Shown piece by piece: positions 271-52,171 of a DNA stretch of 64,000 nucleotides; positions within the stretch are counted from its first letter, which is position 1, and each line of letters starts with the position of its first letter. The stretch lies in IMG/VR virus record IMGVR_UViG_3300032221_000327; one strand, written 5' to 3'. Position numbers and translations under genes: made by a program. The notes beneath the pieces are model-generated. The model was not told the DNA's origin. It did no database searches and was given only the letters and a program-made list of their open reading frames with translations. Source of the stretch: an uncultured virus (IMG/VR IMGVR_UViG_3300032221_000327). Lineage: Duplodnaviria > Heunggongvirae > Uroviricota > Caudoviricetes.

Positions 271-900
271 ATGACGATCATCGCAACCCTCCCTCCGGCC
301 ATTCTCTGGGCAGCCTCTCATGCTGCTTCCACCGACTGCTCTAAGGGCCCATTGTGCGCTATTGACATTCGGCGCATCGACAGCAAGGTGCGCATTGTTG
401 GCGTGGATGGCCACCGCTGCTTCCGCTGTTTTCTTCCGTTGTCTGATATGTACTTCGCTCCTGAGGGCAGCATCAGGCTCTCGCCTAAAACCTTCGCCAA
501 GGCCCCTACAAAGAAGGCTGTCGTGGCAGAGATTGACGATGGAGGGATGGTGTTCTTCAAGGACAATCTGGGTCACGTATTGTCGTCTGGATCGTGGCTG
601 CCTGAGCCCTGGGCATCTGCTGATCTGACATTCCCGAACATTGAACAGATTTGGCCAGACGATACAGCCTTTTCTTGCAATCCTGGCACCTTTATTGCCA
701 TGAGCGCCACCTACATCGCTGATTTCGCCAAGGTGGCCGCCAAGATCGGCGCCAACAATGTCATGCGCCTGCTGTCCACTGATTCCCCCATTGCTCCCCT
801 TGTGTGGCAGTGCGTTCTGGACAATAAGTGGTTGGGTTATGAGGAAACTCAAGAGGTCTGGCTACAGTATCTGCTCATGCCCGTGCAGGTCAGAAAGTGA
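271..900 (+). CDS. truncated DNA polymerase III beta-clamp (DnaN)-like protein
   Basis: AASTDCSKGPLCAIDI, VGVDGHR, FPNIEQIWP, IAMSATYI and terminal YLLMPVQVRK follow the order of DnaN domain II/III motifs; 209 aa only. Confidence 0.75.
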   Translation: MTIIATLPPAILWAASHAASTDCSKGPLCAIDIRRIDSKVRIVGVDGHRCFRCFLPLSDMYFAPEGSIRLSPKTFAKAPTKKAVVAEIDDGGMVFFKDNLGHVLSSGSWLPEPWASADLTFPNIEQIWPDDTAFSCNPGTFIAMSATYIADFAKVAAKIGANNVMRLLSTDSPIAPLVWQCVLDNKWLGYEETQEVWLQYLLMPVQVRK

Positions 901-1268
901 TCCCAGACAGGCTCAGGCAAGCCTATGCTGCTGCCGTTGTTACTGACGACAACGGCAATGCACTGGCAGGGGCTTCCTCTCTGCCTTTCCCATTGTTCGT
1001 GATCACAGCTTGCAACCCCTACAGCATCGCCACTCCCTCGATTAACGAGCAGTTGCACGTTGTTTTGCAAGCCTTCATTGTCAGCCGCTTCCCCCATGCG
1101 CAGTGGCAGGAGGCTGTAGGCCAGTCGCAGGATGGCCAATGGAGGGAGCAGAGCCTGGCCGTTAGTGGCCTGTCTCAAGAGCAGGCAGTGGCCATAGGCA
1201 GGCATTTCCTGCAGTGGGCCATCTTTAGGATTGACGACGCAGGACTAGAGGTGGTTTCCTGCTGGTGA
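897..1268 (+). CDS. DUF3293-like protein
   Basis: FVITACNPYS…GQSQDGQWREQS…AVAIGRHFLQWAIF pattern; start overlaps upstream stop (GTGA). Confidence 0.7.
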   Translation: MIPDRLRQAYAAAVVTDDNGNALAGASSLPFPLFVITACNPYSIATPSINEQLHVVLQAFIVSRFPHAQWQEAVGQSQDGQWREQSLAVSGLSQEQAVAIGRHFLQWAIFRIDDAGLEVVSCW

Positions 1269-1276
1269 CTGCTGAG

Positions 1277-1345
1277 GGTCCGGCTAGGGTCCGGCTGGAT
1301 TTTGTATGAAGGTCCGGCTGGATTCTGTATGAAGGTCCGGCTGGA
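1277..1345. repeat. tandem repeat, core GGTCCGGCT x4, 23-bp period
   Basis: Core at 1277, 1288, 1311, 1334; units GGTCCGGCTGGATT(T/C)TGTATGAA at 1288-1310 and 1311-1333. Confidence 0.9.
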
Positions 1346-4105: not shown

Positions 4106-4381
4106 GTGCCTTCTCTTGCTTCCGTGCCCAAGCGTTCCCCTTATCAACTGCCTTCTTCCACCACGTTGCGAGTGGAAGCCATCTACAGCCTGCGGGTGAG
4201 TATGCAGCGGCATGAAAGCAAGGTGGTGCGGGACATGCTCAAGGTGTTGAGGGAGGCGGTGGTGAAGCAGCAGTACCAGGCTGCTACTGGCGGGGGACGC
4301 CCTGGCTACCTCCTGAAGCTGACTGGCATGGTTGCGGAGGAAGTGCAGAAAGATGAAGCCCCTGCCTACCCCGACTGGTGA
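4106..4381 (+). CDS. hypothetical protein
   Basis: 91-aa ORF at head of a + strand run. Confidence 0.55.
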   Translation: MPSLASVPKRSPYQLPSSTTLRVEAIYSLRVSMQRHESKVVRDMLKVLREAVVKQQYQAATGGGRPGYLLKLTGMVAEEVQKDEAPAYPDW

Positions 4382-4407
4382 TGAAGCCCCTGCCTACCCC
4401 GACTGGT
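4352..4407. repeat. exact 28-bp tandem duplication
   Basis: GATGAAGCCCCTGCCTACCCCGACTGGT x2 (4352-4379, 4380-4407). Confidence 0.95.
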
Positions 4408-4496
4408 AGGGCAGGCGCCAATGATGAGGAGGACCGTGGCAGTTGACCGGAGCGGGCAGCCGTGCCTACCGTGGGCGAGCCCTCAGTGCCCCAGCA

Positions 4497-5288
4497 ATGG
4501 CTTCCAGCGACTGCCCAACAGCAACTAGCTTCCCTCCATCGACCAACTCCCGGCGACGGCCGTTCCATCGGTTTGTGCTTTCCGTGGACGAGGAGTCCAT
4601 GGAGGCTGTCTTAAGAGGTGACTTGGACAGCCTGATGGCAGCGTTTTGTTGGATCGACTCTCCCCAAGGCCATAAGTATTGGCGGCGGCTCCACGCTGGA
4701 GAGGTGCCTCTGTCTGACAGCGACAAGCGCATGTTGGTGCTGTGGATAATCATTGGTGCCATGCCGATAGAAACAGTGTTTGATGCGGAGGATTATCACT
4801 GCTCCAACCACGCAGCACGCCTGCGGGGCGTGGTGGAACACGGCGGGGTTAAAGCGTTGGACGAGTTGTTCACTTGGAACAAGACTTGTCAAGGTCACGA
4901 TTACTGGCAGGATCGTCGCTACAGGGGTGTGCCATTGTCCCACGCAGACAAGGAATGGCTCCTGGCGCTGGCTGAGCTTCACGACAGGATTGAACAGGAT
5001 CGTAGCGATGGCATTAAGCAGCCCCAAGGGACTCCCAGCAAGACTGAGGCCAAGGACGACGCAGCGGACGAGCCAGTGCAGCAAGCTGCCCAGGTGGACG
5101 AGCCAGTACAACAGGCTGCTGTGGCCAAGCGGGAGCTGGAAGCCGCCATCAGCAAGCTCCTTGCCACCTTCTGCCGGGAGCACAATGCTTCCCTGGATGA
5201 GCTGGACATTCTCCACACAGTCGATGCCACTGGCACCAGCCTGATCGAGGTGACGATTGATGCGCATGTCGCCACTCCCATTCTCTGA
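4497..5288 (+). CDS. hypothetical protein with two FxWxx(S/T)xQGxxYW repeats (paralogue 1)
   Basis: Internal repeats; strong DNA and protein similarity to 5346-6107. Confidence 0.8.
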   Translation: MASSDCPTATSFPPSTNSRRRPFHRFVLSVDEESMEAVLRGDLDSLMAAFCWIDSPQGHKYWRRLHAGEVPLSDSDKRMLVLWIIIGAMPIETVFDAEDYHCSNHAARLRGVVEHGGVKALDELFTWNKTCQGHDYWQDRRYRGVPLSHADKEWLLALAELHDRIEQDRSDGIKQPQGTPSKTEAKDDAADEPVQQAAQVDEPVQQAAVAKRELEAAISKLLATFCREHNASLDELDILHTVDATGTSLIEVTIDAHVATPIL

Positions 5289-5345
5289 CCGTCTACGGAC
5301 CAGCCTCGTTTCCTTCCATCCCTTTCTTTTCCATCGTCCTTTCCA

Positions 5346-6107
5346 ATGACTGCTTCCATGACCACTTCATCGCCCTACCGCCGCCCCCCGTTTCATCAGT
5401 TTGTGCGTTCCGTGAACAAGGAGCCGCTGGAGGCTGTCTTAAGAGGCGACTTGGACAGCCTGAAGATAGCGTTTCCTTGGATCCGCTCCCCCCAGGGTAG
5501 TGAGTATTGGCGGCAACGCTACTGTGGAGAGGTGCCCCTGTCGGACGACGACAAGGCCATGCTTCGTCGCTGGCTGATCATCAAAGACATGCCAGAGGCT
5601 TTTATCGCTGAGCATCTGGAAGTTGGTTTTACCGACCGGAACCGGGCACTTCGCGCCATTGCCCACGGCGGCCCCCTGAAGGACTTGATCTCGTTGTTCG
5701 CATGGGCGCCCACCAGCCAAGGTATCCATTACTGGGCGGCTCGTTGCTACGGGGAGGCACCATTGTCAGGCGAAGACAAGGAATGGCTTTTGGCGCTGGC
5801 CGAGCTGAGCGACAGAATCCAAGAAGACTTGCAAGCAGGACTGCTGCGCAAAGGTAAAAAGGGCTTGGAAACGGTGCCGGCTGCAGAAGCCTCCCCTGCT
5901 CCTGCTCCTGCTCCCTCTGATTCTCCGTTGCTCCCCGTCCTCAAGCAAGCCATTCGCGCCAAGGGCGATCTGGAAGCTGCCATCAGCACGCTCCTGGCTG
6001 ACTTCTGCCGTCAATATGGCGCCACGATTGATGAAGTAATCGTGCATGGCCGGACGACGACAGGCACGACTGTGACGGTTGGCGCCCACATTTCTCAGCC
6101 CCTTTGA
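5346..6107 (+). CDS. hypothetical protein with two FxWxx(S/T)xQGxxYW repeats (paralogue 2)
   Basis: Shares EAVLRGDLDSL, GEVPLS, DKEWLLALAEL, LEAAIS with 4497-5288. Confidence 0.8.
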   Translation: MTASMTTSSPYRRPPFHQFVRSVNKEPLEAVLRGDLDSLKIAFPWIRSPQGSEYWRQRYCGEVPLSDDDKAMLRRWLIIKDMPEAFIAEHLEVGFTDRNRALRAIAHGGPLKDLISLFAWAPTSQGIHYWAARCYGEAPLSGEDKEWLLALAELSDRIQEDLQAGLLRKGKKGLETVPAAEASPAPAPAPSDSPLLPVLKQAIRAKGDLEAAISTLLADFCRQYGATIDEVIVHGRTTTGTTVTVGAHISQPL

Positions 6108-7835: not shown

Positions 7836-7855
7836 GCCCGCTCGGCGGGCTTTTT
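7836..7855 (+). terminator. intrinsic terminator-like hairpin
   Basis: GCCCGC-TCG-GCGGGC-TTTTT. Confidence 0.6.
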
Positions 7856-7862
7856 GTGTCTT

Positions 7863-10400
7863 ATGAAGCTCAAGGAAAAGGCTCGTTGCGAAAAGATTGC
7901 TCGCACTGGCAGGGTGCAAGATTGGCTTGATAGCCCCGAAAGCAGACTCCCGGCATCTTGCACTACGTTCATCGTGGAAGATGATATGGAAGGGCCGGAT
8001 GGTATTGAGGCTTCGTGGCGCTACGTCTCCCATGGCCTTCGCAACGCTGCAGGAGTGGCGGTCCACCTCTCCAAACTTCGCCCTCGTGGCACGGACAATG
8101 GCAAAGGACTGATTGCTAGCGGTCCCGTAAGTTTCGCCACCATCTATAGCAAACTTAATGAGATTCTTCGGCGTGGCGGCAAGTTCCGCAATGGTGCTAT
8201 TACACTCCATCTTGATTATGACCATCCTGATGCCATTGATTTTGTTAATGCAACTCGCGCCGAACTTCCCTGGGCTAAGCGTTGTCTAAACGTTGACCAA
8301 CATTTCCTTGACAAAGCATCGCCTGAACTGATTTCCGCTTGCATGAAAGCAATCAGCAATGGCGACCTTTGGCTCACAAAAATGCGCACTGACAAGAATG
8401 GTGCTCGCATCTATGGCAATGTTTGCGTAGCTGGCAGCACTATCATTCTCACCACTGAAGGCCCTCGCAAGATTTCTGATCTCCAAGGCCAAGCCTTCGT
8501 TGCAATTATTAATGGCCAAGAGCATCCTTCTTCTGATCGTGGTGCATGGAGCAATGGCTTCCGTCAAACCTATCTTCTGGAGACCAAAGAAGGCTATTCA
8601 GTTCGGGCCACTGCCGATCATAAAATCATGACGGCCAATGGATGGAAAGAACTTGGCAGTTTGAAGCCTGGTGACAAGATTTCACTCAACAAGCACTGGT
8701 CAGACGAAGCTTGCCAATGGGGCGGCAAGGGTTCTTACGACGAGGGCTGGCTGATTGGCTGGCTTCTCGCTGATGGCACCTACCAGAACGACGAAAATGC
8801 CAAGCTTGATTTTTATGGCAGCAAGCAATGTCTACTAGATGGCGCCCTGAAAAAGCTTGCCACTCTTGACAACTATCTTCAGCGCGACCACTATTCTAAA
8901 CTTCGCACTGGCACTGTTAGCGCATGTGCTGATCGTACAAGCGTAGGAAGCGCAGGACTAGCTCGTGCTGCCATGGAATATGGCATTGCTCGTAGCAATA
9001 AAACCGCCACTGAACTCCTTGAAGAAACTAGCGCAGAGTTTCAGCGAGGATTCCTTGAAGCCTATTTTTCTGCTGATGGCACTGTTAGTGTTGGAGGTGT
9101 GTCGGGCAATGGTAAAAGCATTGGCGTGACGAGCGTCAACTTCCGCAATTTGGAAGTGATGCAACGCATGTTGCTGCGCTTTGGTATTCGCAGTCGTATT
9201 TGGAAAGAGTGCTACAACGGTGGCATGACCATGATGCCAGATGGCAAAGGTGGACAAAAGCTTTATCAAACGCAAAAAGCTTCTCGCCTTGACATTTCTG
9301 GACAAGCCGATTTCCATCGCTTCAACACTTTCATTGGTTTCACTCTTCCCGAAAAACAAGAAAAGCTTGATGCGCTGCTGAGCACTTATCAAAAAGCTGC
9401 CTATGCCAAGCGATATGAAGCCATTGTTTGTTCCATCACGCCTCACGACGTGGAAGAAGTGTTTGATTGCTCCATTCCCACTGCAGGAGCTTTTGATGCC
9501 AATGGCATTTACGTATCGAACTGCTTAGAGGTGCTGCTGCCTCACCGTGGTACATGCCTGCTTGAGCACATCAACATGGGCGCCTGCTCTATTAACGAAC
9601 TTGAAGGGGCATTTGTCGATGGCATGAAAGAGCTTTGCGAACTTCATGGCCGTACTGGCGTGGGAGAAACAGGCGAATATCTGCCACCTGAGAAGGATAG
9701 GCAAGTGGGTCTCGGCATACTCGGCCTCGCCAACTTCCTTTCTATTCACGATATTTCCTACCGGGATTTTGGGGAAGCTCTTGATGCCTTCCTCATGGAT
9801 GATCCACATCCTTGGTGCCACTACTGGGGCGAAAAGCCCGCTGGAAAGGCCGTGAAAGCCCTGGACAAGGCCATTCAAGCCGCTGCGGAAGTGGCTCGTG
9901 AGAACAAGATGGAACGCGCCTTTGCTATTGCCCCTACTGCCTCCTGCTCCTACCGCTACTTAGATGCCCGAGGCTTCACAACTGCCCCTGAAATTGCTCC
10001 TCCCATTGCCCGTATTGTCGATCGGGATAGTGAAACAATGGGCGTGGAACGGTTTGAATATGGGCCAGTGGAAATTGCTGAAGAAGTGGGCTGGGAAACA
10101 TTCCGCAAAGTGGCTGATGGCATTGCGCGGCTTTATTCTCGCACTGGCCTCTACCATTCCTACTCGCTTAACTGGTGGTCGGACATGGTAGTTTGCGACG
10201 AAGCCTTCATTAAAGAATGGCTGGACAGTCCGCAAACTTCTCTTTACTACGCCCTTCAAGTGCAAAGTGGCACCCAAGCCAAGGATGATGTTGGAGTAGA
10301 ATTGGGGGACGACTTCTCCAGTTTCTTTGAGCTGGAGAATGAAGACAAGCCTGAGGCTTGTTCCATTGATGCTGGCTTCTGCGCCGCTTGCTCAGAATGA
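7863..10400 (+). CDS. nrdA: ribonucleotide reductase class I alpha subunit (compact cyanophage type), intein-containing
   Basis: PASC, LSKLRPRG, SGPVSF, split N-V-[intein]-C-L-E motif, IAPTAS, SLYY, C-terminal CAAC; ~480-aa extein. Confidence 0.92.
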   Translation: MKLKEKARCEKIARTGRVQDWLDSPESRLPASCTTFIVEDDMEGPDGIEASWRYVSHGLRNAAGVAVHLSKLRPRGTDNGKGLIASGPVSFATIYSKLNEILRRGGKFRNGAITLHLDYDHPDAIDFVNATRAELPWAKRCLNVDQHFLDKASPELISACMKAISNGDLWLTKMRTDKNGARIYGNVCVAGSTIILTTEGPRKISDLQGQAFVAIINGQEHPSSDRGAWSNGFRQTYLLETKEGYSVRATADHKIMTANGWKELGSLKPGDKISLNKHWSDEACQWGGKGSYDEGWLIGWLLADGTYQNDENAKLDFYGSKQCLLDGALKKLATLDNYLQRDHYSKLRTGTVSACADRTSVGSAGLARAAMEYGIARSNKTATELLEETSAEFQRGFLEAYFSADGTVSVGGVSGNGKSIGVTSVNFRNLEVMQRMLLRFGIRSRIWKECYNGGMTMMPDGKGGQKLYQTQKASRLDISGQADFHRFNTFIGFTLPEKQEKLDALLSTYQKAAYAKRYEAIVCSITPHDVEEVFDCSIPTAGAFDANGIYVSNCLEVLLPHRGTCLLEHINMGACSINELEGAFVDGMKELCELHGRTGVGETGEYLPPEKDRQVGLGILGLANFLSIHDISYRDFGEALDAFLMDDPHPWCHYWGEKPAGKAVKALDKAIQAAAEVARENKMERAFAIAPTASCSYRYLDARGFTTAPEIAPPIARIVDRDSETMGVERFEYGPVEIAEEVGWETFRKVADGIARLYSRTGLYHSYSLNWWSDMVVCDEAFIKEWLDSPQTSLYYALQVQSGTQAKDDVGVELGDDFSSFFELENEDKPEACSIDAGFCAACSE
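8424..9521 (+). mobile_element. intein with LAGLIDADG homing endonuclease (366 aa)
   Basis: Starts CVAGSTIILT, block B ATADHKI, GWLIGWLLADG and GFLEAYFSADG, VFDCSIP, ends GIYVSN before Cys. Confidence 0.93.
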
Positions 10401-19493: not shown

Positions 19494-20735
19494 GTGGCCA
19501 AGATTCTTTACTGCGGCGACATTGGCGTGCAAACCGGCTTTGGGCGTGTGGCCGAATACCTTGTCCCAGCCTTGGCCAAGGAGCATGAGGTTCATGCGCT
19601 AGCTGTCAACTGGCACGGCGATCCCAGTCCAATGCAGCAGCACTGCGCCATGTATCCAGCGCAGGCCCACGGCTCGGACCCGTTCGGCTCGCACCGCATT
19701 GCCAGTATGGTGCAACAACTGAAGCCTGACTTGGTGTTCATTGTCAATGACATTTGGGTGGCAATTTCGCTATACGATCAAATCGAAGGACTGAAGAAAG
19801 ACATTCCATTCAAGAGCTGCATCTACACTCCCATCGACTCCTACGGATTGTTCCCTGAACTGTTGCCCGCAGTAGAGAAGTGGGACCAGATGATTACCTA
19901 CACGCACTTTGGCGCCCATGAAATTGCCCGCATGGGTTATCAGCGGCCCGTGCCAGTGATTGGCCATGGCACGGACTTCTCCAAGTTCTTCCCCCTGGAC
20001 AAGCAGCAGTGCCGCCGTTCGCTGGGCCTCCCTGAAGACGCCTTTATCGTGTTCAATGGCAACCGCAACCAGCCACGGAAACGCATCGACTTGACCATCA
20101 AAGGCTTTGTTGAGTTTGCCCTGGACAAGCCTGATGCCCGCCTGTGGCTGCACATGGGCGTGAAGGATATGGGCTGGGAGATTGTGCCGCTGTTCCGGCG
20201 AGTGGCGCGTGACATGGGCTACGACGCCACCAATAAGCTCATCCTGAGCGGCCCGCACTTCTCCACTGCGAATTGCCTTTCCATTGAAAAGCTCAATGAA
20301 GTGTATAACGCTGTGGACATTGGCGTGAATACTTGCATTGGCGAGGGCTGGGGCCTGGTCAATACTGAGCACGCTGCAACTGGCGTTGCGCAAGTGGTGC
20401 CAGACCACACAAGCCTGCAGGAAATCTTCACCAACACACCTCGTATCCAGTGCAACGCACAGGCCACTGATTGCAACTATGGGTTGGAGCGCCTGCTGCC
20501 TGACCCTTCCAGCTTGGCGGCCATCCTGAACGGCTACTACAACGATCGGGAGCGACTGGCTGCTGATGGGCAATGGTGCAAGCAGCGCATCGAGGAGCCG
20601 CAGTTCACTTGGCCTGTCATTCAACAGGCGATGCTGGGCGTGGTGGCTGATCTGCTGGCGCCACAGCCTGTCGCGCAGGACTTCAAGGGCTTTGGGCAGC
20701 CTCCTGCCCTGCAAGCAGCAGTGAAGGTGGCCTGA
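19494..20735 (+). CDS. GT-B fold glycosyltransferase (GT4-like)
   Basis: TGFGRVA, HGTD, NRNQPRKRID, GEGWGLVNTE. Confidence 0.9.
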   Translation: MAKILYCGDIGVQTGFGRVAEYLVPALAKEHEVHALAVNWHGDPSPMQQHCAMYPAQAHGSDPFGSHRIASMVQQLKPDLVFIVNDIWVAISLYDQIEGLKKDIPFKSCIYTPIDSYGLFPELLPAVEKWDQMITYTHFGAHEIARMGYQRPVPVIGHGTDFSKFFPLDKQQCRRSLGLPEDAFIVFNGNRNQPRKRIDLTIKGFVEFALDKPDARLWLHMGVKDMGWEIVPLFRRVARDMGYDATNKLILSGPHFSTANCLSIEKLNEVYNAVDIGVNTCIGEGWGLVNTEHAATGVAQVVPDHTSLQEIFTNTPRIQCNAQATDCNYGLERLLPDPSSLAAILNGYYNDRERLAADGQWCKQRIEEPQFTWPVIQQAMLGVVADLLAPQPVAQDFKGFGQPPALQAAVKVA

Positions 20736-20737
20736 TC

Positions 20738-21445
20738 ATGCAAGTATCCCAAATCTTCCTGACGGACAGTGGCGGCAATGAAGTGCCGCCCGTGCTGAGC
20801 CAGTTCAATTCAACAGTGCAGGCTGGCTTTGCGCTGCCTTACGTGCGCTACAACAATGCCACATTGCGGGCGTTCATGGTTGAGCACTATGACGAGCGAG
20901 TGGTGGCAGCCTATGACAAGCTCCGCTCCTATTCCAACAAGGCTGACCTGGGGCGTTATGCCCTGCTCCATGCCTTAGGGGGCTGGTACTTTGACATGGG
21001 CATCCGTTTGCATACGCCCGTGGAACTGGCAGAGCACATTGACATGGTGGCCTTCCGCGAAATCCAGAAGTTCACTGGCACTTGCTGGGCGTGCATGACA
21101 GCAGTGATCTTTTCCAAGCCTGGTAACCCTGCACTGCGCTATGCCATTGATCAAGTGGTGGAGAATGTCGAGAACGCTTACTACGGCATCACTCCATTGT
21201 CCCCCACTGCTACGCCCGTGCTGGGGCAGGCACTGGCGAAGCATGGTGAGCACGCTGGCATTGTCTACGGGGACTTTCTGCAACTCACACCCACGCATGA
21301 GAAGCAGAACACTGCTTTTGTGCTGCCGGATGGCACCATCCTGGCCTGGGGCAAACCGGCTGGTGGTGGTGATTTATCAGCACTGGGCGCTAAGGGAACC
21401 AACAACTACAATGTGCTGTGGCAACAACGGAGTCTCTACGCATGA
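20738..21445 (+). CDS. GT-A fold glycosyltransferase (GT32/capsule-synthesis-like)
   Basis: ADLGRYALLHALGGWYFD. Confidence 0.8.
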   Translation: MQVSQIFLTDSGGNEVPPVLSQFNSTVQAGFALPYVRYNNATLRAFMVEHYDERVVAAYDKLRSYSNKADLGRYALLHALGGWYFDMGIRLHTPVELAEHIDMVAFREIQKFTGTCWACMTAVIFSKPGNPALRYAIDQVVENVENAYYGITPLSPTATPVLGQALAKHGEHAGIVYGDFLQLTPTHEKQNTAFVLPDGTILAWGKPAGGGDLSALGAKGTNNYNVLWQQRSLYA

Positions 21446-22056
21446 AGCACTTTCTGGACTTCGGCACCCATTACTTCAGGGATTCAGCCTGCGGCAATGG
21501 CATCTTGCAGTTTGAGCGCAGTGGTTACTTTGGCCCAGAGGTGCCTCACCAGTGGAACGTCTACACGTTTGAGGCGTCCAAGCAAATCGCCGCCGATAAC
21601 GCCGCTTACATTCAACCCATTGCCGATCGCTTTACCGGCTTTCAAGCCTTCCACGCAGCAGTGGCAAGCTATGACGGTACGATTGCATTTCGATGGTGCC
21701 CCAACTACGAGGGCGGATCAAACTGCCTGTCCATGCACATCGCGGAAGTGATTGAGCATGGCGCCGAGGAATACGAAGTGGAGGCCATGGATGCAGGGCG
21801 CATTGTCCGTGAGATTGTGGCTCAAGATCCCAATGCGGAACTGACCATTAAGTGCGACATTGAGGGCAGTGAGTTTACGGTTTTGCCTCGTATTTTGGAG
21901 ATTGAAGGCGTTGGCCGATGGGTGAAGGAGATATTCGTTGAGTGGCATCATCGGTTTTGGCGCGACTCCGAGGATCTTTCATTGATCCTGGGGCTCAAGG
22001 CTAGAATTGAGCAACTATGCGAGCAGCATGGTATTACCTTGCACGACTGGCAATGA
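21442..22056 (+). CDS. FkbM-family methyltransferase
   Basis: FLDFGTH, VYTFEA, IKCDIEGSEF, IFVEWH. Confidence 0.85.
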   Translation: MKHFLDFGTHYFRDSACGNGILQFERSGYFGPEVPHQWNVYTFEASKQIAADNAAYIQPIADRFTGFQAFHAAVASYDGTIAFRWCPNYEGGSNCLSMHIAEVIEHGAEEYEVEAMDAGRIVREIVAQDPNAELTIKCDIEGSEFTVLPRILEIEGVGRWVKEIFVEWHHRFWRDSEDLSLILGLKARIEQLCEQHGITLHDWQ

Positions 22057-51001: not shown

Positions 51002-52171
51002 TCAGGCTTCCTTGACCATGACAGCCCACCCATCGTTGCCCTTCGGCATCCAGCGGCGCTCCCAATACTGATTAGGAAACACTACATACTGCCCGCCTTG
51101 TGCGCTCTTGTAGCCACCGTGAATCAAGTCGCACAACCCGTAGGGGTCGTGGTGAATGGTGCCCCCATTAGAAAGGCCCACAATGGTAGTCCAATGGCCA
51201 CTGCCAGCAGGCGCACGATAGTTGCCATAATGCAACCAACCCACAGCGAGCGGACGGCCCGCCTGGATTTCTTTTGTCACATCCGCCAGCGTCAAGTTTT
51301 GACGGAATGTAGCAACCAGCCCTAGCTCCTGCAGCGCCTTCAGTTGCGCCGTTGAATTGGTGGTGTCACCATACTTCTTGCGGATGGCATTGTATTGATC
51401 ATCACTTGTTACTTTTCCATAGAACGCCGCCAGCATTGCGCAGGCGCTGGAGAAGCATTCGCGATGCCCTTGCCCTGACGCATTGTCCCGCTGGCTGAAA
51501 TAGGGAACGGTCAATGGATTAGTGAATGACGGGCCTGCTGGTGCCGCTGGGCGTGCCCTGTAGAGCTTCCCAAACTCCAGCCGCTGTTCCATCGTCATTG
51601 TCTTGTGCAGCCACTCATAGGCCGCCACTTGATGCTCCTCGTTCTTGAAGTTACGGGCTGCTGCCACCATTGAAATGTCGCCAGTGGCAGGGGCTGCAGC
51701 AGGCGCCACACTGGTACTCCATAGCTTTCCCTCCGCTGTGCGACGACGCTTGAGGCCCGCTTCCACTGTGCTGCCAGGGTTGACATAGAGCATGAGCGCA
51801 TCCGGCACCCTGCTCCATTCCTTCCCCTTCAGACGTTGTGACAACGTAGCGAACCCTTCAGTGCCGTAGAAGTGCCAGCCAAGGTTCCATGCAAAGGACA
51901 GCAGCGCCCCCTTCTGGTTGTCGTTCATTCCGTCCCAGCCGGGAATCTTCACCAGGGCCGGCAGCACATCTTTCGTGACAGCAGTGCGCAGCATGGCTTC
52001 TGCCTGCCCTTCCGTGATGCGATCACCACGCTTCACTGCACGGCCATCAGGCATCTTGGTGGAACCGTAGCCGATCGTCCATGGCTCTCCCCCAGATAAG
52101 GGGTCTGGATAGGCGGAAAGCTCCAAACCTTCAAATTCCCGAATCAGAGCCAAGCCAGCGTCTACGTTCAT
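51002..52171 (-). CDS. endolysin: GH24 lysozyme fused to C39-like peptidase
   Basis: FEG…AYPD…WTIGYG, ALLSFAWNLG, GLKRRR; VPYFSQRDN, ECFSSACAM, GHW, HDPYG. Confidence 0.9.
   Translation of the reverse strand: MNVDAGLALIREFEGLELSAYPDPLSGGEPWTIGYGSTKMPDGRAVKRGDRITEGQAEAMLRTAVTKDVLPALVKIPGWDGMNDNQKGALLSFAWNLGWHFYGTEGFATLSQRLKGKEWSRVPDALMLYVNPGSTVEAGLKRRRTAEGKLWSTSVAPAAAPATGDISMVAAARNFKNEEHQVAAYEWLHKTMTMEQRLEFGKLYRARPAAPAGPSFTNPLTVPYFSQRDNASGQGHRECFSSACAMLAAFYGKVTSDDQYNAIRKKYGDTTNSTAQLKALQELGLVATFRQNLTLADVTKEIQAGRPLAVGWLHYGNYRAPAGSGHWTTIVGLSNGGTIHHDPYGLCDLIHGGYKSAQGGQYVVFPNQYWERRWMPKGNDGWAVMVKEA

Follow-up and report, generated by a model that had tools for sequence, protein, structure and literature searches.

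The window analyzed here, a 64,000-nucleotide stretch of DNA from an uncultured virus (IMG/VR record IMGVR_UViG_3300032221_000327), carries near its start a plus-strand gene (271..900) for a 209-aa protein that is, by its ORF, by profile comparison, and by a fold model, a 1.5-domain homologue of the β-clamp, DnaN. An in-frame stop codon lies at 211–213, and any N-terminal extension of the ORF is therefore limited to at most 19 codons. Residues 1–112 (271..606, the end being approximate) are equivalent to clamp domain II in the profile and in the AlphaFold2 model, in which the second helix is shortened to one turn (residues 72–75) and then followed by a basic loop. Within this domain, the DGHR motif (residues 46–49; 406..417) corresponds to D173–R176 of the peptide-binding pocket, as the pocket is listed in a section of PMC11139829 on the Escherichia coli clamp. 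The domain II–III linker motif (residues 121–129; 631..657) aligns with E. coli F241–P249, and half a clamp domain then follows (residues 130–209; 658..897), namely a strand, a helix, and three strands with the MP pocket motif (M203 and P204) at the terminus; in the AlphaFold2 model, this half-domain is made up of one helix and three to four strands. The initial annotation had picked out the DnaN motifs from the letters, and all of them are in place: AASTD (residues 18–22), DGHR, FPNIEQIWP (121–129), IAMSATYI (142–149), and YLLMPVQVRK (200–209). It had also put about 12 residues between the linker and the IAM motif, and exactly 12 (residues 130–141) precede I142. Its further reading that domain I and about half of domain III are absent is likewise correct, in that all of domain I and some 55 residues of domain III are missing.

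The single 209-aa sequence found no match among Pfam families or PDB sequences. A profile built from 124 relatives, a check that had been proposed along with structure alignment, gave 55 PDB rows, of which the top 50 are β-clamps (best E 2.2e-9), and its match to 8dj6_A came in two blocks, 139–268 and 321–394. When the AlphaFold2 monomer model (pLDDT 96.5) was used in a structure search, the first 15 rows were β-clamps; residues 1–208 were superposed on residues 132–377 of 7evp_B with a Z score of 14.9 and an rmsd of 2.8 over 178 aligned residues. Foldseek concurs, and β-clamps outrank PCNA in the structure search (Z 14.9 versus 11.4). As for the deletion itself, P249 and Y323 delimit a stretch of 75 residues in E. 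coli but of 20 in the 209-aa protein and of 16–25 in all 124 family members, and on E. coli domain III, the family profile scores 5.6 bits in the second half and −1.5 bits in the first half. In some relatives, the stretch behind an N-x-x-Y motif, with the end of the helix and the loop after it, can be aligned just as readily with the first half of domain III; this likeness was noticed at 706–774 of the window and in a second locus (L035:2207–2743). We speculate that a partner subunit could thereby present the loop contacted by the loader subunit δ.

The 209-aa protein thus consists of DnaN domain II, the linker, and half of domain III. It shares the homology and the fold of clamp domains with DnaN but does not have three whole domains per subunit, given its length, the upstream in-frame stop codon, and the 55-residue deletion; nor does it have the two whole domains per subunit of the trimeric clamps PCNA and T4 gp45. 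Two other origins of the truncation were considered and rejected. A split clamp with the missing parts on other genes is not seen, since PF00712 or PF02768 matched in none of 15 related records; the family profile, run over the six frames of the window, gave one match only. An assembly artefact is contradicted by the same deletion in all family members and by a contig of metagenome run X4 that covers 547–710, across the deletion junction.

Relatives of the protein numbered 36 among 100 candidates and, by profile search, 175 among 6,529 proteins, defining a conserved cyanophage subfamily in which the lengths were 154–257 aa among the 120 matches listed. With no length limit, there were 87 relatives among the 50% representatives; 85 of these span 58–290 aa, and the remaining two are long repetitive proteins matching just in short pieces. 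The family set retained 186 of 198 proteins, leaving out 10 short or partial ones and two long repetitive ones, and a 75% identity filter reduced it to the 124 members, which are 24–71% identical to the 209-aa protein and carry the same deletion throughout. The protein matches the profile of phrog_3007 (E 3.7e-8, residues 11–164), and Atlas assigned it, at 0.96, to viral clusters in which PF02767 marks 20–38% of the members; within the subfamily, PF02767 stays below the Pfam cut-off, with weak matches in two of 36. Its composition (domain II plus partial domain III) and its size are those of the short phage polIII-β class, about 170–260 aa, to which it belongs, outside the ring-forming DnaN family. 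The best matches in a viral structure library were phage proteins of 163–266 aa. A distant member retrieves 267 INPHARED records labelled DNA polymerase III β or RusA-like resolvase, a set that may contain a few full-length homologues; a separate set of 73 records mixes short and full-length homologues (e.g., that of Mae-JY04 with 375 aa) and hence gives no family count. The RusA resolvase label, which PHROG and RefSeq attach to the family, was rejected: Pfam RusA was found in none of 36 members at E 0.1, and residues 1–208 fit the clamp fold. A scan of GTDB genomes confirmed no relatives among 40 candidate stretches. An AS-1 contig looks like a fragment of a full-type clamp near that of E. 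coli. Another truncated class possibly exists in prophages of Mycobacterium abscessus, the β homologues of which match E. coli residues 1–119 only.

The short class is widespread and was noted as early as 2011, but it is unstudied. The text passages on it in PMC3201878 (Kazlauskas and Venclovas 2011) and the supplement legend, which names BcepC6B, describe five short homologues spanning the second and third domains and mention neither a half domain nor self-pairing. In the part of PMC8790148, the S-SRP02 paper, that concerns it, ORF14 is merely tabulated, and the sections of PMC12363180 and PMC13434031 that were consulted do not contain the class. In a literature search, mostly outside subscription papers, no work on the function or structure of the short class came up, nor any model in which such proteins pair with themselves.

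The phage is S-CBS4-like: it shares 82% identity in the major capsid protein, and a collinear genome, with the Synechococcus siphovirus S-CBS4, so that the host is probably a picocyanobacterium. The clamp gene sits in a variable stretch ahead of the ribonucleotide reductase genes, and no homologue of it was found in the collinear S-CBS4 (best E 0.92). A related allele from lake metagenomes lacks a 1,008-nt stretch (278..1285) comprising most of the clamp gene and a DUF3293 gene (897..1268, plus strand), which overlaps the clamp stop codon and is lost alongside it. In run X4, a contig joins 277 to 1286, with 32 nt on the shorter side; in run X3, from a different study, a contig departs at 277 and continues with letters identical to those of X4. 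The empty-site allele retains the first seven bases of the clamp gene, with seven other letters at the joint, and pieces of the clamp gene are present in runs X2, X3, and X4. From S-CBS4 without the gene and the empty-site allele in runs of two studies, we conclude that the clamp gene is optional. The DUF3293 gene was considered as a conserved operon partner and rejected, as it was not seen beside the clamp gene in other loci. Promoter and terminator scans of the locus gave results at chance level, and no RNA data set came up as carrying the sequence.

Several other features of the window were noticed in passing. The two-gene cassette is followed by a 23-nt tandem pair (1288–1333), a purine-rich GAGG array (1384–1438), and a 21-bp inverted repeat (1477–1522), and a 28-nt tandem pair lies at 4352–4407. 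Adjacent genes at 4443–6107 share phrog_16354, 10949, and 25460 via stretches of 20–27 residues and are apparent repeat-built paralogues. The large subunit of ribonucleotide reductase (7854–10400) contains an intein carrying a LAGLIDADG endonuclease, and a relative (L003) matches this subunit in two blocks flanking the intein. Amid the head genes, as in S-CBS4, are genes for two glycosyltransferases and for an FkbM-like methyltransferase (19494–22056). The endolysin on the minus strand (51002–52171) combines a phage lysozyme domain with a papain-like C39/C70 peptidase domain. The phage also encodes a Sak annealing protein.

Part of PMC11139829 lists 18 pocket residues of the E. coli clamp, which we mapped by hand onto the 209-aa protein. 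Eight are identical (L155, G174, H175, R176, P242, Y323, M362, and P363), five are conservatively replaced (R152K, V247I, V344I, V360L, and M364V), and five are changed relative to E. coli (T172V, L177C, R246Q, N320S, and R365Q). Across the family, T172 is retained in 70% and N320 in 76% of members, and L177, R246, and R365 are altered in most of them, L177 to Ala or Cys (76%), R246 to Gln (72%), and R365 to Gln (73%); Trp occupies the position of L248 in 76%, and R208 is conserved in 90%. D150 and P363, the mutations of which are described as lethal in E. coli in a passage of PMC4045847, are retained in 94% and 100% of the 124 members, respectively. The pocket is the most conserved surface of the protein, with a mean conservation of 0.66 versus 0.38 overall and none of 20,000 random sets as high; the set consisted of 17 of the published 18 residues plus Y244 in place of R246, and its conservation is partly circular because the pocket motifs also drove the detection of homologues. 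The top covarying pairs (50–128 with a z of 10.6, 48–148, 14–159, and 52–199) are contacts expected of the pocket and of the packing between domains II and III. The pocket would probably bind clamp motifs; as five of the 18 positions differ, its specificity may have shifted. Elsewhere in domain II, K77 (499–501), present in 90% of the family, lies at or beside E. coli E202 in a hand alignment. E202K is reportedly a studied mutant of the E. coli clamp.

A clamp domain has an internal pseudo-twofold axis that relates its two similar halves. A lone half-domain would for this reason expose its core, and in the AlphaFold2 monomer model, residues 134–145 have no strand partner. We had proposed self-pairing through the half-domains before the ESMFold2 result was at hand, and the resulting interface agrees. 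With four copies, ESMFold2 scored 0.60 (runs of 0.64, 0.48, and 0.60), and the best of three controls scored 0.20; among proteins of solved structure, 20 of 30 self-pairs and one of 23 single chains attained the mark applied, a calibration from which our job differs in its four copies and custom alignment. The runs share at least 61% of their contacts with a partner pLDDT of at least 77. The main predicted self-pairing surface spans residues 134–168 (670..774, plus strand), to which the ESMFold2 model and a weak covariation point: strand 141–145 of one copy would pair with strand 163–168 of the other, and in the best run helix 146–157 spans the twofold axis so that residues 149, 150, and 153 meet their own mates. 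Of the 20 distinct inter-chain pairs that were named, 19 could be scored, and their mean covariation z was 0.86, versus −0.43 to 0.54 in five shifted registers; this signal is weak and not independent of the ESMFold2 model because the same family was used. Conservation of the predicted dimer surface (0.42, a value reached by 16% of random sets) is not above average, and the ESMFold2 pass could reflect a likeness to solved clamp domains.

Taken as a structural prediction, two copies most probably pair on a true twofold axis via their half-domains and thereby rebuild a whole clamp domain. The likely unit would be an open three-domain arc with two pockets rather than a lone pocket, and from the geometry and symmetry of clamps, the two pockets should face opposite sides. 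The initial annotation had regarded the protein as a homologue cut down to the pocket; it is more than that, given the predicted assembly of the half-domains into an arc with two pockets. The self-pairing model of the half-domains is new, although the short class itself was already known. The same annotation had held that the protein cannot form a normal ring, and we agree: a normal head-to-tail ring is precluded because the interface residues published in part of PMC11139829 fall in the deleted parts. K74, I78, R96, R103, R105, F106, and E298–E304 are all absent, and a counterpart of L273 is conceivable under an alternative register. The arc is thus not expected to close into a ring.

That no phage DNA polymerase is encoded nearby had also been claimed, and none was found among the 67 ORFs of the window, which may be less than the whole genome. 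No polymerase was found in S-CBS4 by annotation or by three family searches, and PolA, PolB, PolC, and a clamp loader are absent from all six near-complete subfamily records. PolA occurs in four of 18 records overall, including one partial subfamily record (G013), and in three of four near-complete records of the distant proteobacterial type. In locus L036 and in BcepC6B, the clamp homologue lies directly behind the PolA gene, an arrangement that fits a cofactor role in these distant members. The BcepC6B protein (gp31; L058:4058–4573), with the same deletion, has lost the terminal MP. In TheodorHerzl, the homologue is a lone antisense gene amid head genes. A product annotated as “DNA polymerase I” in S-SRP02 (L001:22389–23129) is merely 246 aa, and the S-SRP02 genome has no PF00476, PF00136, or PF07733 matches. 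As for a phage-encoded partner with a clamp motif, nine loose matches and no strict one were found in the window, and no strict one in the neighbouring ORFs scanned.

We then took a census of 35 subfamily loci in 22 sequence groups. S-SRP02-like phages make up 12 of the 22 groups and have the clamp homologue behind the terminase gene, with an integrase nearby in 10 and an RNA polymerase in nine; by analogy, this placement would resemble that of T7 early genes. ArdC adjoins the clamp homologue in six groups, and 10 of the 22 groups have a gene for ArdC, ArdA, or a methyltransferase no more than 2.5 kb away, a raw count with no null control. The gene in the window has no such counter-defence neighbour, but just 270 bases upstream of it are covered.

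These observations bear on the proposal, made in the initial annotation, that the protein serves as a decoy for the clamp partners of the host. In the mechanism we favour, the gene encodes, as profile and fold show, DnaN domain II and one half of domain III, and the copies are predicted to pair via their half-domains, so that a true twofold axis of the dimer stands where a clamp domain has its internal pseudo-twofold. The resulting open arc, II–(half)2–II, would have the size of one β subunit and two clamp-motif pockets. As an optional accessory protein, probably an early one, it would capture host proteins with clamp-binding motifs and keep them off the real clamp or off the phage DNA. Because no polymerase is encoded by these phages, repair, recombination-limiting, or defence proteins, or the loader subunit δ, would be more likely targets than Pol III α; titrating the replicative polymerase would be the least rewarding option since the phages appear to rely on host Pol III and the host clamp, and a general clamp-motif sink would also harm a phage dependent on Pol III. 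Among possible targets, RecBCD is a clamp-binding protein according to a recent report (PMC13254535), and δ is a further candidate because, according to passages of PMC11139829, its binding to monomeric β is about 50 times stronger than to dimeric β. The decoy reading is partly supported by the lack of polymerase or loader genes found alongside, by the accessory status of the gene, and by the counter-defence neighbours in relatives. As a whole, an accessory decoy for host clamp-motif proteins is put forward tentatively, with a chance that we judge to be slightly below even.

Of the other readings, the one that survives best, though unlikely, is that the dimer is an open, loader-independent half-clamp which, in the manner of herpesviral non-ring processivity factors or clamp-derived polymerase subunits, stays on phage DNA and brings in a polymerase (host Pol III here, phage PolA elsewhere) or another factor. 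Basic residues on the helices expected to line the concave side (a mean net charge of +2.9 in region 71–82, with K77 in 90% and K/R158 in 84% of the 124 members) would suit such a role, as would the position behind PolA in L036 and BcepC6B. Parts of PMC11139829 report that an E. coli clamp variant that is monomeric retains DNA binding but cannot support processive synthesis, and a clamp-derived domain is described as serving a jumbo-phage polymerase in part of 10.64898/2026.10.01.755736. The pI of 5.9 (family median 6.2), however, is far from the 9.5 given for UL44 in a portion of the PMC3201878 supplement, the gene is absent from S-CBS4 and from the wild empty-site allele, and most subfamily loci lie outside replication modules.

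It is rather unlikely that the pocket has instead changed its specificity toward one particular host protein (e.g., a defence factor) or toward single-stranded DNA. This idea would account for the family-wide changes at L177, R246, and R365, the Trp at the L248 position covarying with position 50, the conserved R208, and the counter-defence neighbours, and the E. coli pocket also binds the single-stranded DNA of primed templates, as stated in part of PMC11253446. Nonetheless, the core residues L155, G174, H175, R176, P242, Y323, M362, and P363 are retained, and our comparison is with the E. coli and not a cyanobacterial clamp, so that some of the differences may match the host clamp.

In the portion of PMC9690074 on ring composition, clamp rings are of the 2×3 and 3×2 types only. 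A third architecture, in which 1.5-domain subunits share a rebuilt domain and either two arcs close head-to-head as a four-subunit ring or an open arc acts on DNA, is improbable; if true, it would stand beside 2×3 and 3×2 across hundreds of phages, and pockets facing both ways could tether two partners in opposite directions. For the closed form in particular, with pockets on both faces, the chance is slim. Four subunits of 1.5 domains do add up to six domains, and one of the three ESMFold2 runs gave 318 contacts versus about 120. In the best run, however, each copy contacts one other through a single interface, and the other high-scoring run resembles it in contact count; the free edge of domain II, which would have to close the ring, is conserved below average (0.33, and 0.26 for the edge strand) with a helix of one turn, and a loader gene was found in none of 18 records.

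Equally remote is a dominant-negative subunit, the free edges of which would cap host β or jam the clamp loader and slow host replication. The arc has the size of one β subunit, δ has the preference for monomeric β mentioned above, and an overexpressed clamp subunit of a mycobacteriophage was toxic according to part of PMC11797047, but the free edge is not conserved and the phage seems to depend on the replisome of its host. Finally, a decaying, functionless fragment of a captured dnaN would explain why the gene is dispensable but is effectively refuted by conservation, all 124 diverged members having the same deletion with pocket residues retained, and distant phages having the deletion as well.

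Returning to the accessory decoy, we compared the protein with known systems. With DnaN (PF00712/PF02767/PF02768; 1MMI, 7EVP, and 2AWA), it shares the domain II fold, the linker, the C-terminal strands, the domain II–III packing seen in the covarying pairs, and most pocket residues, whereas domain I, the head-to-tail interface residues, and some 55 residues of domain III are missing from it, and it has a predicted twofold half-domain dimer and five pocket substitutions. The short phage polIII-β proteins (phrog_3007; S-SRP02 ORF14, BcepC6B gp31, and TheodorHerzl gp07) have the same profile, size, and short linker-to-helix span, and neither they nor the 209-aa protein come with a loader; the cyanophage subfamily has diverged from them in the Trp of the linker and the altered pocket rim. 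A clamp fold without a loader is also common to herpesviral UL42/UL44 and Goslar Rhc, and the model of the 209-aa protein matches 1t6l with a Z score of 7.3. UL44 is an open C-shaped dimer. Unlike the 209-aa protein, with its 1.5 domains, a pI of 5.9, and no polymerase found, these proteins consist of two whole domains or are fusions, their pI is high, and each serves a viral polymerase of its own. Twort Gp168 and the late transcription of Mu via β are likewise cases of phages manipulating the clamp hub; as described in parts of the literature on them, they bind or use the host clamp, whereas the 209-aa protein copies the clamp's own pocket.

In conclusion, we have described a phage protein in which DnaN domain II is joined to half of domain III. 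The self-pairing model offers an account of how a subunit of 1.5 domains can fold and predicts an arc with two pockets. The clamp assignment would correct the RusA label that databases carry for the family. Part of PMC4889955 treats the role of stand-alone viral clamp homologues as an open question, on which the predicted pairing, the allele without the gene, and the counter-defence neighbours of relatives all bear. Cultured coliphages carry the same short class, and if the protein is indeed a decoy, its interactors would reveal clamp-dependent host proteins that restrict phages, both in cyanobacteria and for the coliphages with this class.
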